Below, piece by piece: positions 2,951 through 58,741 of a stretch of 64,000 nucleotides of DNA. The notes under the pieces are model-generated. The model did not search any database. It was given only the letters and a program-made list of their open reading frames with translations, and had not been told where the DNA came from. Made by a program: the position numbers and the translations under genes. The stretch's first letter is position 1, and each line of letters opens with the position of its first letter. Source of the stretch: Hadesarchaea archaeon (lineage in GTDB: Archaea; Hadarchaeota; Hadarchaeia; Hadarchaeales; WYZ-LMO6); the NCBI GenBank assembly GCA_029259185.1, contig JAPDJF010000001.1, positions 9,156 through 73,155 on the forward strand. Reading direction: 5' to 3'.

Positions 2951-4183
2951 GTGGAATGGATGAGGTCGTGGTTCGAGTATGAGTGTATAGATTGCGGTAA
3001 GAGACAGCCTCCTGAGAAGAGATTTTATGTCTGTCCTGAGTGTGGAGGATTGTTGGAGATAGAGCTAGACCTCCAGTATATCTCAGAGCGTTTGGATCGG
3101 GAGGCGCTTGAGAGGAAACCCCTGAACGTGTGGAGGTATCGACAGTTTTTGCCGATCGTGGATGAGTCCAAGATAGTCACTCTCCAAGAAGGAGGGACAC
3201 CACTGTACAGGTGTAGACGATTAGAGGAGAAGCTCGGGATAGCAGAGTTCTACGTGAAGTACGAGGGAGCTAATCCTACCGGATCCTTCAAAGACAGGGG
3301 GATGACGGTAGGGGTCACAAAGGCCCTCGAGTTTGGGGTGAAGACAGTGGCTTGTGCATCCACCGGCAACACCTCAGCCTCACTCGCGGCTTATGCGGCC
3401 AAAGCTGGGCTGAAGTGTTTAGTGATCCTCCCTAGCGGAAAAGTAGCCCTGGGGAAACTGGCACAGGCGGCGATTCACGGGGCACGCATAGTAGCCGTTA
3501 AGGGAAACTTCGATCGGGCACTTTCACTCGTCCGGCAGATATGTGAGAAGCGTGGGGACATATATCTACTAAACTCCCTCAATCCCTTCAGGCCGCAGGG
3601 ACAGAAGACGATAGGGTTCGAAATAGCCGATCAACTCGGGTGGGGCGTTCCGGATCGATTAGTGGTCCCGATGGGGAACTGCGCTAACATATGGGCGATA
3701 TACAAGGGATTCTTTGAGTTAAAAGAGGTGGGCATGATAGAAAACATACCGAGGATGGTGGGGATCCAAGCTGAAGGGGCTAAACCCATAGTCGATGCGG
3801 TGAGGAAGGGGATTGATAAATTCATTCCAGTTGAGAACCCGGAGACGATAGCAACGGCTATCCGTATAGGCAATCCGGTGAACGGTTCGAAGGCGATCCG
3901 GGCCATAAAGCGCTCGGGCGGTACGGCTGAGAGCGTAACGGATGAGGAGATAATAGAAGCCCAGCGTGAACTAGCTAGGTCAGAGGGAATAGGTGTCGAA
4001 CCCGCCAGCGCGGCAGCGATAGCAGGGATTAAAAAGCTCATAGAGAGAGGGGAAGTGGACAGAGATGAGAAGGTAGTTTGTGTGGCCACGGGTAACGTGC
4101 TCAAGGATCCGGAAGAAGCAGTGCGGGTATCTGAGAGCCCCTTGGAAACGGAGCCGGAGGAGGTATTGAAGGTGGTAGGATGA
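2951..4183 (+). CDS. thrC: Threonine synthase, archaeal type with an N-terminal zinc ribbon
   Basis: N-terminal CxxC...CxxC ribbon (CIDCGK...CPECGG). PLP-lysine motif GSFKDRGMTV. Length 410 aa. Confidence 0.9.
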   Translation: MEWMRSWFEYECIDCGKRQPPEKRFYVCPECGGLLEIELDLQYISERLDREALERKPLNVWRYRQFLPIVDESKIVTLQEGGTPLYRCRRLEEKLGIAEFYVKYEGANPTGSFKDRGMTVGVTKALEFGVKTVACASTGNTSASLAAYAAKAGLKCLVILPSGKVALGKLAQAAIHGARIVAVKGNFDRALSLVRQICEKRGDIYLLNSLNPFRPQGQKTIGFEIADQLGWGVPDRLVVPMGNCANIWAIYKGFFELKEVGMIENIPRMVGIQAEGAKPIVDAVRKGIDKFIPVENPETIATAIRIGNPVNGSKAIRAIKRSGGTAESVTDEEIIEAQRELARSEGIGVEPASAAAIAGIKKLIERGEVDRDEKVVCVATGNVLKDPEEAVRVSESPLETEPEEVLKVVG

Positions 4184-17179: not shown

Positions 17180-17365
17180 TTACATCTTCTCCAACAGCTC
17201 GAAGAATTTTTCTCGAGTGAGCTCCGCCTCCCGGATTATCGCCCTCACAAGTGCTGGCTTGACCTCTTTGCCCGGATGAACTGGGACAACAGTGCGCATG
17301 TTCCCTTTCATCAGGATAACATGAGAACCCTTCCTTCTTACGACCTGAAATCCTTCATGGATCAA
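17180..17365 (-). CDS. hicA: HicA-family mRNA-interferase toxin
   Basis: The 61-aa sequence MIHEGFQVVRRKGSHVILMKGNMRTVVPVHPGKEVKPALVRAIIREAELTREKF matches the YcfA/HicA fold signature (GSH...PvH). Confidence 0.75.
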   Translation of the reverse strand: MIHEGFQVVRRKGSHVILMKGNMRTVVPVHPGKEVKPALVRAIIREAELTREKFFELLEKM

Positions 17366-17402
17366 TATTTTGATGAGCTTCTCAGCTGGAACGGGTCCGA
17401 TT

Positions 17403-17642
17403 TTAGGTATGAACCTCTACTTTTTGTAATCCTACAACTGACTGAGCCATTTTGAGAACTTCTGATTTCTCCTCTTCATCCAAGGTTTCTAGGTAGAGCT
17501 CAATCGCTTCTTCAACGTTTTTCATCAACTCTTCGAGCGTTTCGCCTTGCGTGTGGCACCCGGGTAGGGAAGGAACAAACGCCACATACCCGCCCGTTTC
17601 ATCTTTTTGAACCACGACATCAAACATCAATCTCTTGGCCAT
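17403..17642 (-). CDS. hicB: HicB-family antitoxin (UPF0150)
   Basis: The 79-aa sequence MAKRLMFDVVVQKDETGGYVAFVPSLPGCHTQGETLEELMKNVEEAIELYLE is the classic HicB N-domain. It lies directly upstream of hicA on the same strand. Confidence 0.75.
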   Translation of the reverse strand: MAKRLMFDVVVQKDETGGYVAFVPSLPGCHTQGETLEELMKNVEEAIELYLETLDEEEKSEVLKMAQSVVGLQKVEVHT

Positions 17643-17768: not shown

Positions 17769-18020
17769 GTGGGAGAAACCTCTGTCCCTTATACTTCTGG
17801 TGAGAAACCCACCGGCGAAAAGGCTTTGAAGGTGCTCACCTACTTCTTTGAGAACCCGCGAGAGGAAGTTTACTTGCGGGAACTGGCGCGCCGGCTACGG
17901 ATGAGCCCAGCAACTGTTATGCGAGCTCTGCGTCTCCTCATTAGAGAAGGCTTGATAACCAAGCGCCCGGAGAAGCACGCCACCTATTTCAAGGCCAACC
18001 TTAACAGTTATGTAAAGTAA
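17769..18020 (+). pseudogene. 5-prime (winged-HTH) half of an HTH-nucleotidyltransferase (MNT) gene disrupted by an IS630 insertion
   Basis: YLRELARRLRMSPATVMRALRLLIREGLITKRPEKHATYF is homologous to the N-terminus of the intact 186-aa paralog at 57559-58119 (YVRELAEKLGLSPSKVSVASRALELQGILKSEERGLAKFY). The ORF terminates 14 nt before the IS left end. Confidence 0.55.
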
Positions 18021-18033
18021 CAGAACTTCAAAG

Positions 18034-19105
18034 TTGTAAAGTATTTATATTTCAATAGGAAACGAGAGATAGGGCGATGAGACAGCTGTTTGTCAGAAGG
18101 CTCACCAAGCGGGAGAGGGACTTCGTTTACAGACTCATCGAGGACAAGCGGTACAGAGCGCGGGGGCTCGTGATCGCGCTGAGCTACGAGGGCTATCCTG
18201 TAGACATGATTGCTAGAAAGGTCAATATGCACCCGGTCAACGTGAGGAAGTGGATACGGAGGTTCAACCGATCCGGTGTCGAGGGCATTGCTCCCCAGAA
18301 GGTCGGGAGGAAGCCGAAGCTGGACAAGCGGACGGAGGATCGGATCGTCGCGATCGCGCTGATCGACCCGGAAGCGCTGGGGCTCCGATTCTCGACTTGG
18401 AGCCTGCGCAAGCTGAGCGCCTATCTGAGATCAAGGGGGATAGCCGACCTGAGCCACACCCAGCTCAGAACCATCCTGACGAGCAGGGGGTTGAGGTTCA
18501 GGCGGAGCAGGGCCAAGCTCATTTCCCGAGACCCCGAGTACGAGGCCAAAAAGCGCAGAATTCAGCGCCTGCTGAGACACCCCAACTGCAGGGTCATGTT
18601 CGAGGACGAGAAGCGTCTGGTGGCCAAGGAGTACGGCGGGTGAAGCTGGTGTAGGAAGGCAAAAGTGGTGGAGCTGAACCAGCGGACGCGGGGGAAGGAG
18701 ATTCTCTTCGTCGCCTACGACCCGCACCGGCATCGGATCGTGAGGCGGTACACACCGAACATGCACGCGCGGTGCTTTGTCGAGTTCCTGAAGCTCCTGT
18801 CGCGCACGACCGACGAGGACATCTATCTGATCTTGGACAACCATCCATCTCATCGCTCGAGGGAGGCCGGGGAGGTGTTCGCGAAGGGCAAGATAAAGCC
18901 CGTGTGGTTGCCGAAACATGCGCCCGAGCTGAACGATGTGGACAAGATCATCTTCTCTCTTCTTCAGCGGGAGGTCATTCAGAACCGGAAGTTCAGGTCG
19001 CTCGATGAGATGGAGCGATGCATCGACCGATGGATAAGAGGGTTCAACTCCTCACACAGAATAAATCCAAGTTTACAAAATTGAAGCACAATTATTTTAC
19101 AATAC
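18034..19105 (+). mobile_element. IS630/Tc1-mariner family insertion sequence, about 1.07 kb, with imperfect terminal inverted repeats
   Basis: The left end TTGTAAAGTATTTATATTTCAAT pairs with the reverse complement of the right end, TTGTAAAATAATTGTGCTTCAAT. The interior is markedly more GC-rich than the flanks. It encodes an IS630-type transposase. Confidence 0.65.
18077..19084 (+). CDS. IS630-family transposase (HTH plus DDE_3 domains), interrupted by a single in-frame TGA at 18641-18643
   Basis: The N-part (188 aa) carries HTH and pairing domains. The C-part (139 aa) is the DDE region (ILFVAYDPHRHRIV...LILDNHPSHRS...LPKHAPELNDVDKIIFSLLQREV). Both parts are in the same frame and are separated only by the TGA (EYGG*SWCRKAKVVEL). 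Confidence 0.7.
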
Positions 19106-19127
19106 TCTTAACCCATGCTTCAGAGAG

Positions 19128-19457
19128 TTGAAGAAAGCGTATACGGTTTCCAAAATCTTGCGCTCCGGAGTCCTTGGACTCCTCAGCGAGAAATCGGTTG
19201 GTCTGAGTTCAATACTGCTCTACGGTAGCGCTGCTAAGGGTGAAGACGACCGAGAAAGCGATTACGACTTTTTGGTAATCGCCGCAAGATGTACCGCGAA
19301 AAGTAGTGAGCTCTTGAGGCTCCTAGGAAGAGAGGTCACCCTGCAGGTCTTCGACGCAGCGGGCTGGAAGCGAGTAGCAAAACGAAATCGAGCATTCTAC
19401 CTAGACGTTATAAGCAGCTCCATTGTCCTTTATGGTGAAAAGCCGGTGATCGATTGA
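19128..19457 (+). pseudogene. 3-prime (nucleotidyltransferase) half of the IS-disrupted HTH-MNT gene
   Basis: LLYGSAAKGEDDRESDYDFLVIA is the minimal-nucleotidyltransferase motif GSx9-13Dx[DE]. It is homologous to the C-half of the 57559-58119 paralog (IAVYGSYASGTNDEKSAIKLLVIS). It starts 23 nt after the IS right end. Confidence 0.55.
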
Positions 19458-19467
19458 CGCTTAGGGA

Positions 19468-19668
19468 TTGTTTCGCGCTGACAAAGTGGCGGATGCTTAC
19501 ATCTGCAAGGTAACATCCGTAGGTCAAATAACCTTACCAAAAGAAATTAGAAAGGAGCTAAACATCAAAGGAGACGATTTCGTTATTTTGGAGAAAATCG
19601 GGAAAACATATTTTCTCAGAAAGGTCGGGATCGAGAAAGACATTTTGAAAAAATTAGGGCACGAGTGA
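19468..19668 (+). CDS. AbrB/SpoVT (swapped-hairpin) domain protein, likely a VapB/MazE-like antitoxin
   Basis: The 66-aa sequence contains VTSVGQITLPKEIRKELNIKGDDFVILEK, which is the looped-hinge helix pattern. Confidence 0.5.
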   Translation: MFRADKVADAYICKVTSVGQITLPKEIRKELNIKGDDFVILEKIGKTYFLRKVGIEKDILKKLGHE

Positions 19669-19743: not shown

Positions 19744-19947
19744 ATGAAAGTGTTCGTTGACGCGAACACTATTGTAAGTTTGGTGACATGTGGTGGGACT
19801 TTTTTCTCAATCCGAAACTCAACCACTTTTTTGCCTGTGGGAGAAAGGAGAAATGATGTCCAAGAAGAGGAGATGTGGGATAATCGCGGTTGGAAACGAA
19901 ATCTTGCAAGGCTATGTTCGAGACTCGAATTCCTTTTGGCTTGCTAG
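19744..19947 (+). pseudogene. PIN-domain (VapC-like) toxin remnant. Only the N-terminal 14 aa are recognisable
   Basis: MKVFVDANTIVSLV is the canonical PIN N-terminal strand with the first acidic residue. The sequence then diverges and is overlapped by the cinA-like start. Confidence 0.3.
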
Positions 19948-44689: not shown

Positions 44690-44798
44690 GCCCCGGTGGT
44701 GTAGACCGGTCAAGGAGGAAGCTCCGCCGAAATCATACAGCCCTTTCGAGCAACGAGGACAGGCTGTGACGTGGGTTCAAATCCCGCCCGGGGCACCA
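44690..44798 (+). tRNA. tRNA-Glu (anticodon UUC) with two putative introns: about 19 nt in the D-loop (44714-44732) and 12 nt at the canonical 37/38 position (44749-44760). CCA is encoded
   Basis: With both inserts removed, the sequence GCCCCGG-UG-GUGUAGACCGGUCAA-UCAU-A-CAGCC-CUUUCGA-GGCUG-UGAC-GUGGGUUCAAAUCCCGC-CCGGGGC-A-CCA matches the canonical archaeal tRNA-Glu. Without splicing, the D-arm and anticodon stem cannot form. Confidence 0.55.
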
Positions 44799-57558: not shown

Positions 57559-58119
57559 GTGGATCTGTTCAAAAAATATGCGGATTTTTTGCTGCTGAGT
57601 TTTTTCCTCCAAAATCCAACGGGCCAGTTCTATGTAAGAGAACTGGCTGAGAAGTTAGGGCTCAGTCCCTCTAAGGTGAGTGTGGCTTCCAGAGCACTCG
57701 AACTTCAAGGGATATTGAAAAGTGAAGAAAGAGGATTGGCCAAATTTTACAGACTCAACAATGACGTTCCGTTGGTGAAGGCTTTTAAGGTCGTTCACAG
57801 TTTAGCGAAACTCAGCGAAGCTAAGCTCGTCGAAAAACTCTTAGAAAGAGATCCGTCCATAATCTCGATCGCGGTTTATGGAAGCTATGCATCTGGAACG
57901 AACGATGAGAAAAGTGCCATCAAGCTCTTGGTGATCAGTCAGAAAGAAAAAGAAGTGTTTCTAGAGGTATTGAGGAGCATCGAGGAACGTCATGGGATCC
58001 GGCTTGATCTGGAAGTACTCAAGCTCGGGGAGTGGAGAGATCGGGTGAAAAAAAGTGATTCCCTCTATCGAGAAGTTCTTTCCGCCCACATCTTGCTCTT
58101 CGGTTCGAACCTCATCTGA
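57559..58119 (+). CDS. HTH plus minimal nucleotidyltransferase (MNT) protein, the intact paralog of the IS-split gene at 17769/19128
   Basis: N-terminal winged HTH. NT motif IAVYGSYASGTNDEKSAIKLLVIS. Confidence 0.6.
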   Translation: MDLFKKYADFLLLSFFLQNPTGQFYVRELAEKLGLSPSKVSVASRALELQGILKSEERGLAKFYRLNNDVPLVKAFKVVHSLAKLSEAKLVEKLLERDPSIISIAVYGSYASGTNDEKSAIKLLVISQKEKEVFLEVLRSIEERHGIRLDLEVLKLGEWRDRVKKSDSLYREVLSAHILLFGSNLI

Positions 58120-58330: not shown

Positions 58331-58741
58331 TCATCCTTTGGATAGTTCCTTCTCTATGGCCTTTATGAATTCCTTAGCAGAATCCATTGCTCCTTTAGCA
58401 TCGCTTCGTTTGACAGATAATGTGGGGTCACTATAGATGGCTGAGACGAATCGATTGAACTGATCTAAAGAGGTCACGTGCTCTCTCAGCTCAGGGTATC
58501 GACACCGAAGATACTCGATCATCGTTTGTCTTTCAACCTCGCTCACCCCATTTCTGAAGAGGAGAGCCCTAGCGGCATGAAACATGGAGATGAGCGAGGC
58601 CACCACGGCCATGTCCCGGTATCCTAGAGCATTGCTATCTTTCGCCCGCTTTAACCATTCTTTTGCAACTTTCAGGGATCTCATACTCATGTTCAACGGC
58701 AAAACCAATTTGAATTGCGTCTCAAAATTTAAAAATTTCAA
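58331..58741 (-). CDS. HEPN-domain protein, the toxin-type partner of MNT
   Basis: LKVAKEWLKRAKDSNALGYRDMAVVASLISMFHAARALLFRNG is the HEPN helical pattern. It is convergent with the MNT gene. Confidence 0.55.
   Translation of the reverse strand: MKFLNFETQFKLVLPLNMSMRSLKVAKEWLKRAKDSNALGYRDMAVVASLISMFHAARALLFRNGVSEVERQTMIEYLRCRYPELREHVTSLDQFNRFVSAIYSDPTLSVKRSDAKGAMDSAKEFIKAIEKELSKG

Follow-up and report, generated by a model that had tools for sequence, protein, structure and literature searches.

A recent insertion of an IS630-family element has split a gene encoding a 193-aa winged helix-turn-helix (wHTH)/minimal nucleotidyltransferase protein, and the one in-frame TGA of the transposase gene that arrived with it is best explained as a nonsense lesion in a solitary copy. 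We put the probability of this reading at about 85%. The window, that is, the whole 64,000-nucleotide stretch of DNA analysed here, holds both parts of the gene, the duplicated target between them and a distant paralog:

17769-18005, plus strand: 5' part of the disrupted gene, codons 1-79, with Pfam wHTH matches; equals residues 1-79 of the intact protein P0058
18000-18005, no strand: left copy of the duplicated target CTTAAC (TTAA core), single in the empty-site contigs L089-L092
19107-19112, no strand: right copy of the duplicated target CTTAAC, from comparison with the empty site
19113-19457, plus strand: 3' part of the disrupted gene, codons 80-193 and stop, comprising linker and nucleotidyltransferase domain (Pfam Polbeta/NTP_transf_2); equals residues 80-193 of P0058
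57559-58119, plus strand: distant intact paralog, 186 aa, 28-34% identical (alignment, Pfam)

The insertion is documented by alleles that lack it. Four other metagenome assemblies (L089-L092) carry the locus uninterrupted, with flanks 99.93-100% identical to those of the window (0-4 substitutions and one 1-bp indel over 3.7-8.6 kb) and with the same succession of neighbours, namely PolD DP2, HicA, HicB, the gene itself, a MazE-like gene and MoCF. The 193-aa protein encoded there, P0058, is exactly what a conceptual fusion of 17769-18005 with 19113-19457 encodes. Given empty alleles with near-identical flanks and a protein equal to the rejoined halves, the insertion must be very recent and polymorphic, and the same strain background without the element still circulates in other samples. 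These alleles bear out the proposal of the first-pass annotation that an IS630/Tc1-type element had recently disrupted an HTH-nucleotidyltransferase gene. An event of this sort is ordinary and well documented; what the locus offers is a clean, resolved case in which the exact pre-insertion allele persists in the population of an uncultured archaeon.

At least three more independent assemblies (L001-L003), with coverage as high as 244x, reproduce the filled sequence at 100% identity, TGA included, and it is therefore not an assembly error. We also considered that no insertion took place, the two open reading frames (ORFs) being natural separate genes beside an old resident element, or that an error of assembly or sequencing produced the arrangement or the stop. 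The window does derive from a metagenome assembly, and nothing else favours such an explanation, which we regard as next to impossible: rejoining the halves in frame gives a protein that is real in at least four independent datasets with identical genomic context, and the filled allele is itself reproduced. The empty-site contigs and the shared gene neighbourhood refute it.

The N-terminal half, a winged HTH matching Pfam HTH_IclR/MarR_2, is read by an ORF (17769-18020) that continues through four codons supplied by the insertion sequence (SYVK) to a TAA at 18018-18020. The C-terminal half is called mechanically from a TTG at 19128 (19128-19457); it bears the nucleotidyltransferase motif GS...DYD (LYGSAAKGEDDRESDYD) and scores 27 bits against Polbeta (cutoff 26.9) and 25.3 bits against NTP_transf_2 (cutoff 21). 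The insertion point lies in the linker that connects the winged-helix domain to the nucleotidyltransferase domain. As proposed earlier, the two ORFs are halves of one former gene: P0058 equals their join, and both align to the paralog, the first to residues 12-67 (34% identity, E 2e-10) and the second to residues 76-182 (28% identity, E 1e-11). The suggestion that the event could be dated against this paralog did not hold, since proteins only 28-34% identical are unusable for the purpose; recency comes from the empty-site alleles instead.

Comparison with the empty allele also sets the bounds of the element and adds the following features:

18006-19106, plus strand: IS630-family insertion sequence, 1,101 bp, termini AGT...ACT
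18006-18040, plus strand: left terminal inverted repeat, from an inverted-repeat search and conserved in relatives
18044-18052, plus strand: TATA-box-like TTTATATTT, about 29 nt 5' of the transposase ATG, read from the sequence
18077-19084, plus strand: transposase frame of 335 codons, one of them an internal TGA, closed by its own TGA stop at 19082-19084 (Pfam, NCBIfam, alignment)
18641-18643, plus strand: in-frame TGA, codon 189, in place of a Tyr codon conserved in the clade (alignment of relatives)
19072-19106, plus strand: right terminal inverted repeat, containing the transposase stop codon and conserved in relatives

The pre-insertion allele fixes both the ends of the element and its target, a TTAA core within a repeated CTTAAC. 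BLAST segments of the empty contigs onto the two window flanks overlap by exactly six bases, CTTAAC, and the extra DNA relative to the empty allele amounts to 1,107 bp, made up of the 1,101-bp element and the second CTTAAC. An element of about 1.07 kb had been proposed; it is present and of IS630 type, at a size slightly above that estimate. Its length becomes 1,103 bp if the duplication is taken to be TTAA and 1,105 bp if it is taken to be TA. The centre of the target is indeed TA, within TTAA, but the repeat found at the junction is the 6-bp CTTAAC rather than the bare TA duplication that had been anticipated. Reading the duplication as TA or TTAA would require the terminal bases of the element to mimic the target flanks, and the base adjoining AGT/ACT varies between near-identical copies (L087/L088 and L085/L093). 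The flanks of relatives are ambiguous, being compatible with a 2-, 4- or 6-bp duplication, and TTAA flanks the element in every copy of the clade examined. We envisage that the element moved by DDE cut-and-paste chemistry into the TTAA site of the 193-aa gene, where repair of a staggered target cut would have generated the duplicated CTTAAC.

The inverted repeat arms (18001-18040 and 19072-19111) span 40 nt at 75% complementarity when the flanking TTAA is counted in. The inverted ends of the element proper cover about 36 nt, are imperfect and contain two TGTAAA motifs each, those on the left at 18011-18016 and 18035-18040. Imperfect terminal repeats had been predicted and exist; the TTGTAAA...TTCAAT then given for them is an inner motif of the arms, and the tips are AGTTATGTAAAG... 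and ...TTTTACAATACT. At least six independent relatives share the terminal repeats. The TATA-like block is also conserved in the independent relative L004 (alignment columns 58-68), which is 75% identical in nucleotides to the element from end to end, and probably acts as an archaeal promoter giving rise to a leaderless transcript. A search of the element against Rfam returned no match.

In agreement with the earlier observation that the element is richer in GC than its surroundings, its GC content is 55.3%, while the flanks have 47-49% and the window as a whole 51.2%. The third-position GC of the transposase gene is 0.79, compared with a host mean of 0.59 +/- 0.03 (maximum 0.65), a contrast that marks the element as compositionally foreign. 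The insertion thereby shows that mobile DNA from a higher-GC source is still arriving horizontally.

Elements of the IS630 family are about 1.0-1.4 kb long, have terminal inverted repeats and insert at TA with duplication of the TA, and their transposases consist of an N-terminal HTH followed by a DDE_3 domain with DD(34-35)(D/E) spacing. Consistent with this, the window element shares with IS630 and ISY100 of the IS630/Tc1/mariner superfamily its size of about 1.1 kb, the bipartite HTH plus DDE_3 transposase, terminal inverted repeats and a TA-containing site. Unlike typical IS630, it lies in TTAA with a 6-bp CTTAAC repeat, resides in an archaeal host and has a transposase interrupted by a stop. 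The nearest named IS630 transposase (P0040) is only about 28% identical to it, and the element is a previously unnamed member of the family. TTAA repeats instead of TA have been reported for ISHsp2 of Halomonas sp. ZM3, which was called a distinct IS630-family member (PMC3606827). The clade of the window element, always flanked by TTAA, is like ISHsp2 in target site. This case also marks out a small clade of archaeal IS630-like elements.

The transposase gene matches Pfam HTH_23/HTH_29/HTH_32 in its N-terminal region and DDE_3 in its catalytic region. The read-through product scores 184.5 bits against NCBIfam NF033545 (transpos_IS630), whose cutoff is 100, and a single alignment that runs through the TGA pairs its residues 29-323 with positions 2-298 of the 299 in the model. 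P0001, the nearest intact relative, reaches 185.3 bits. Three acidic residues conserved in the alignment, D177 (18605-18607, within FEDE), D254 (18836-18838) and D289 (18941-18943), form what we take, from the alignment and family knowledge, to be the catalytic triad, and the 35 residues from D254 to D289 give it DD35D spacing. 

The TGA at 18641-18643 is the sole in-frame stop among the 335 codons, as the first-pass annotation had it. It had been placed between the HTH and DDE domains; in fact it falls inside the catalytic domain, 12 codons past D177 and before D254 and D289. Related DNA copies have a Tyr codon (TAC/TAT) at codon 189 in all eight cases, so that the window reads GGG TGA AGC TGG against GGN TAC/TAT GAG/AAG TGG in relatives. 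Tyr likewise occupies the position in nearly all aligned close proteins, the exceptions (P0027 and P0031) having another sense residue, and none of at least 80 related loci has a stop at residue 189. Close relatives, at up to 76% amino acid identity, are uninterrupted proteins of 320-345 aa.

Three other origins for this codon were discarded. The stop did not come from the Trp of the usual G-x-W motif by a TGG-to-TGA change, since relatives align Tyr with it and the conserved W191 still stands two codons 3'. A compensated double frameshift finds no support in the hexamer TGAAGC versus TACGAG, which no simple indel pair reproduces. An alternative code with TGA as sense is ruled out by the 26 of 45 long host ORFs that end in TGA, the disrupted gene and the transposase gene among them.

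Of the two explanations offered earlier for the TGA, a nonsense mutation or a readthrough site, the first is favoured by the Tyr of relatives, the use of TGA as a host stop and the failure to find a significant structure 3' of it, and the second gains no support. Most likely the TGA is a plain nonsense lesion that would have inactivated the transposase. The gene should then yield a 188-aa DNA-binding fragment whose active site is incomplete, which would leave this copy stranded.

The rest of the frame is flawless and retains all three putative catalytic residues. Its C-terminal part has not diverged further than that of intact relatives: the C-terminal/N-terminal pN ratio is about 1.3-1.5, the value that intact relatives show among themselves, and long-term decay 3' of the TGA is not seen. 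On either side of the TGA, dN/dS stays well under 1. These observations run counter to a lesion.

An alternative is that the TGA is leaky or subject to programmed readthrough. The gene would then yield mostly the 188-aa DNA-binding protein and, probably through a near-cognate tRNA, a small fraction of a 334-aa transposase, and transposition would be kept low, as by frameshifting in other IS630 members. Apart from the stop, the frame has no defect and keeps every catalytic residue, the sequence 3' of the stop shows no extra divergence, the stop may have been there already when this very recent move took place, and the protein search revealed no helper copy. Two-product expression is, moreover, known in the IS630 family, for which frameshifting and slippage have been covered (PMC5009743, PMC3606827), and Nitrososphaeraceae relatives have an A7 site. 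In those relatives (L018-L065) the A7 run is conserved after a DPEY motif at about residues 158-163, 5' of the first catalytic Asp; the recoding site of the wider family is such an A7 run with a frame change, about 30 codons 5' of codon 189. As in these and other two-ORF IS630 elements, such as the Roseiflexus IS630, which are expressed by -1 frameshifting or transcriptional slippage, an N-terminal binding product and a full transposase could share one gene here, and the break is in broadly the same part of the protein. The two parts are, however, in different frames at A7 in the two-ORF members, whereas the corresponding stretch of the window is GCC AAA AAG in a single frame. ISHsp2 similarly joins an HTH ORF and a DDE ORF by programmed frameshift, in contrast to the window element and the eight relatives nearest to it, which have one continuous frame each. 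Since both parts of the transposase are already in the same frame, frameshifting is not required.

Despite these parallels we consider readthrough very unlikely. The stop is conserved in no relative, the nearest ones having Tyr, and it sits within the catalytic domain, in contrast to family recoding sites at the HTH/DDE boundary. TGA also ends more of the host's long ORFs than any other stop codon and terminates the transposase gene itself. The earlier proposal had suggested a check for a stimulatory structure downstream; no significant RNA fold was found in the 100 nt 3' of the TGA (z = -1.27; 22 of 200 shuffles fold as well) or in the region around it (z = -1.34). Selenocysteine and pyrrolysine are the only amino acids for which readthrough recoding is established in archaea (PMC8037382), and a stop-codon-gated IS630 element in an archaeon would, if true, stand beside these two known cases. 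Unless readthrough of this TGA is proven, the locus leaves the view of transposase expression and stop-codon decoding unchanged.

Filled and empty haplotypes are nearly identical, and on that basis the element is expected to have acquired fewer than about 0.5 substitutions after it inserted, which makes a nonsense hit after insertion unlikely a priori and suggests that the stop may predate it. A stop older than the insertion would have needed either a helper transposase or leaky decoding of TGA. That the element already had the TGA when it jumped and supplied its own transposase by low-level readthrough seems to us very unlikely.

Selection for the truncated product offers a further alternative to the nonsense lesion. 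Here the 188-aa HTH protein would be a domesticated or repressor-like binder of the ends of the insertion sequence or of host DNA, and the remainder dispensable. The fragment does retain the whole HTH_23/HTH_29/HTH_32 region, and upstream-ORF products of insertion sequences can regulate alone (PMC5009743). We nevertheless judge this highly improbable. The frame 3' of the stop is intact rather than decayed, and the allele is polymorphic, very young and carried by one genome lineage only, so that selection on the product would not have had time to act. No orthologous truncated proteins were found; the other short relative, P0039, is broken at a different place by a frameshift.

Regarding the nonsense lesion as confined to a solitary copy, BLASTN and TBLASTN with the element and a search for the terminal inverted repeat pattern found no second copy in the window. 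The element is assembled through within contigs of 79-127 kb and is the genome's sole copy. Contigs that carry the exact 188-aa and 139-aa ORFs are all 100% identical to the locus. Among 5.8 billion proteins the best non-self relative has 76% amino acid identity, and no closer copy was present in the collections searched. The terminal repeat pattern recovered two more distant copies from metagenome contigs and none from viral contigs.

The host is probably a Hadesarchaeon: a more than 90%-identical orthologue of the disrupted gene, MCD6248023.1, is named Hadesarchaea, and the nearest genome match to the insertion sequence points the same way. The disrupted gene itself resembles the MNT component of HEPN/MNT modules (type VII toxin-antitoxin, MntA-like) in its GS-x(n)-D-x-D motif and Polbeta/NTP_transf_2 domain, differs from MntA-like proteins in its fused N-terminal winged HTH, and matches NF047752 (MntA_antitoxin) weakly, at 25.3 bits, far under the cutoff of 60. 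No HEPN gene lies beside it, its neighbours being HicB and a MazE/AbrB-like gene; the distant paralog does adjoin a HEPN gene (58331-58741, E 1e-8).

As the first-pass annotation proposed, an IS630-family element splits a gene for a winged-HTH/nucleotidyltransferase protein. The interrupted locus comprises three parts:

17769–18020, winged-helix ORF, 83 aa (winged-helix matches)
GC-richer transposase block, 1.1 kb, single frame with one TGA at 18641–18643 (HTH_29/HTH_32 and DDE_3 matches)
19128–19457, nucleotidyltransferase ORF, 109 aa (Polbeta/NTP_transf_2 matches)

[quoted passage not shown] At ~30% identity, the paralog is too distant to date anything, the disruption included. CTTAAC occurs twice, at 18000–18005 and 19107–19112, both in frame with the flanking ORFs, and removal of 18006–19112 restores a 193-codon ORF. 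An exact-sequence look-up placed the C-terminal ORF in a 90% cluster that includes the 193-aa proteins P0058 and P0060 and a 182-aa orthologue, MCD6248023.1, annotated 'Hadesarchaea archaeon'. Conceptual rejoining of the two gene halves yields a protein identical to P0058, which is encoded on four contigs of other datasets (L089–L092) in the gene context of the window (PolD DP2, HicA, HicB, disrupted gene, MazE-like, MoCF, radical SAM). These contigs are 99.93–100% identical to the window on either side of the insertion and carry a single CTTAAC, exactly the six bases shared by the two BLAST segments; over 3.7–8.6 kb, filled and empty haplotypes differ by 0–4 substitutions and one 1-bp indel. 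Because such near-identical empty haplotypes with one CTTAAC exist, the insertion is real, precise, very young and polymorphic. It lies in the linker separating the winged-helix from the nucleotidyltransferase domain, and the upstream gene fragment now terminates four IS-encoded codons past the junction.

The IS-bearing haplotype has an extra G at 17388 relative to three empty-site contigs, which is the sole difference from the closest empty allele across 3.7 kb. It falls in the spacer between two genes:

17403–17642, minus strand, hicB
17180–17365, minus strand, hicA

TTAA is present on both flanks of every examined copy of the window element's clade (the window, L004, L005, L085, L087, L088, L093, L094 and L097), and the same holds for a 30%-identical relative whose 11 copies sit in a single Nitrososphaeraceae genome (among L008–L063). 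The TTAA repeats reported for ISHsp2, an IS630 member, provide a precedent for the flanks of the window clade (PMC3606827). In the window's clade, near-identical copies (L087 versus L088, L085 versus L093) differ in the base that separates TTAA from the conserved AGT.../...ACT terminus. This comparison suggests that the variable base comes from the target, in which case the duplication would be a 6-bp N-TTAA-N and not the canonical TA. A 6-bp duplication agrees with L087, L085, L097 and the window itself, where the empty site validates the CTTAAC/CTTAAC pair. It agrees by half with L005 and not at all with L093 and L094, both of them short contigs and perhaps chimeric assemblies. All 11 copies of the Nitrososphaeraceae relative have one and the same base at this position, so that a duplication of TTAA or TA is favoured for that element.

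The element proper spans 18006–19106 (1,101 bp) and has inverted ends of ~36 nt, or 40 nt at 75% complementarity counting the flanking TTAA. The NCBIfam IS630 transposase model matched the read-through product over its whole length, in a single stretch across the stop (184.5 bits; cutoff 100). A search of 5.8 billion proteins returned ~38 uninterrupted relatives of 320–345 aa, all metagenomic, at 44–76% identity, with named IS630 transposases ~28% identical; an independent relative, L004, shows 75% DNA identity end to end (18001–19111), ends included. Another truncated relative, P0039 (192 aa, 69% identical), is frameshift-broken near residue 160. No second copy was found within the window, and contigs of 79–127 kb assemble straight through the element, which argues against more copies in that genome. 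GC3 of the transposase (18077–19084) is 0.79, far outside the range of host genes (0.59 ± 0.03, maximum 0.65), which suggests that the element came recently from a source of higher GC. The closest relatives' transposases have GC3 of 0.59–0.70, and a stay in a markedly GC-richer host seems to have preceded the arrival of this IS lineage. The element is a new, unnamed IS630-family member caught just after insertion, the phenomenon itself being ordinary. Each inverted end (18006–18040 and 19072–19106) carries two TGTAAA motifs ~24 bp apart, which may form a double transposase-binding site. A TATA-like TTTATATTT (18044–18052) is conserved after the left end, ~29 nt upstream of the transposase ATG, a spacing that suggests a leaderless archaeal transcript.

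The transposase is indeed encoded in a frame that is open but for one TGA, at 18641–18643. D177 (FEDE), D254 (LILDN) and D289 (NDVD; E in some relatives) are nearly invariant in the alignment, and we take them, from family knowledge, to be the DD35(D/E) catalytic triad. The TGA, codon 189, lies 12 codons past the first Asp of this putative triad and ahead of the other two; this puts it within the catalytic domain rather than in the interval separating HTH from DDE, where it was initially placed. Eight related elements read at the DNA level have GGN TAC/TAT GAG/AAG TGG here, versus GGG TGA AGC TGG in the window, so the TGA is not conserved in these copies. Tyr occupies position 189 in nearly all aligned close proteins; P0027 and P0031 lack it yet have a sense residue, and no stop was found at this position among 80 or more related loci. 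Decay in this IS clade strikes varying positions, and codon 189 is not recurrent. No significant sign was seen of the downstream structure envisaged as favouring readthrough: neither the RNA downstream of the TGA (z = -1.27) nor that around it (z = -1.34) folded more stably than its shuffled versions, and the region had no Rfam match. Of the window's 45 long ORFs, 26 end in TGA, the transposase gene and the disrupted gene among them, which makes it an ordinary stop in this host.

Recoding in the wider family occurs at another site. In many Nitrososphaeraceae relatives, the two transposase halves lie in different frames and meet at a TTGAAAAAAAG run that is conserved immediately past the DPEY motif, at about residues 158–163:

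L018, L020, L025–L028, L041, L043, L060, L065 (locus ~2970–3010); also L030, L051: split-frame IS630 relatives (Nitrososphaeraceae, Nitrosocosmicus)

Their HTH and DDE parts overlap at the conserved TTGAAAAAAAG / TTTAAAAAAAG run, which is likely a -1 frameshift or transcriptional-slippage site, in agreement with the frameshifting and slippage published for IS630 members (PMC5009743; PMC3606827). In contrast, the window element has GCC AAA AAG at that place, in a single frame, and its TGA lies ~30 codons beyond.

Given the Tyr in relatives, the ordinary use of TGA by the host, the lack of a fold and the location of the recoding site elsewhere, we favour a plain nonsense lesion. Programmed or leaky readthrough of the TGA appears very improbable, although nothing else in the gene is damaged, both sides of the TGA have dN/dS far below 1, and divergence of the C-terminal part is not out of proportion to that in intact relatives. 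Haplotype similarity also implies fewer than ~0.5 substitutions in the element since insertion, so a nonsense hit after insertion would be unlikely a priori (roughly 1–2% by estimate); had the stop already been there at insertion, the element would have depended on a helper transposase or a measure of readthrough. The collections searched showed no such helper. Against readthrough, recoding of this kind is established in archaea only for Sec and Pyl (PMC8037382). The transposase gene is solitary and, as a nonsense-bearing copy, most probably dead.

The disrupted gene encodes a winged HTH fused with a minimal nucleotidyltransferase (motif GSAAKGEDDRESDYD), weakly matching the curated MntA antitoxin model (25 bits; cutoff 60), and no HEPN partner adjoins it. 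The paralog at 57559–58119 (+) is convergent with a HEPN-domain gene at 58331–58741 (-; E 1e-8); the two form an HTH-MNT/HEPN pair, whereas the disrupted copy is without a HEPN neighbour. The locus lies directly past tRNA-Ser and tRNA-Thr in a small toxin–antitoxin-like cluster of HicA/HicB and a MazE-like gene. A MazE/AbrB-like antitoxin ORF (19468–19668) is followed by a short ORF (19744–19947) that starts MKVFVDANTIV, a PIN-domain-like start with no Pfam match, and overlaps the MoCF gene start; it may be a VapC-like toxin remnant. Elsewhere in the window, a 106-nt tRNA at 44690–44795, detected by Rfam (41 bits) and not reported by ARAGORN, is probably an intron-containing archaeal tRNA.
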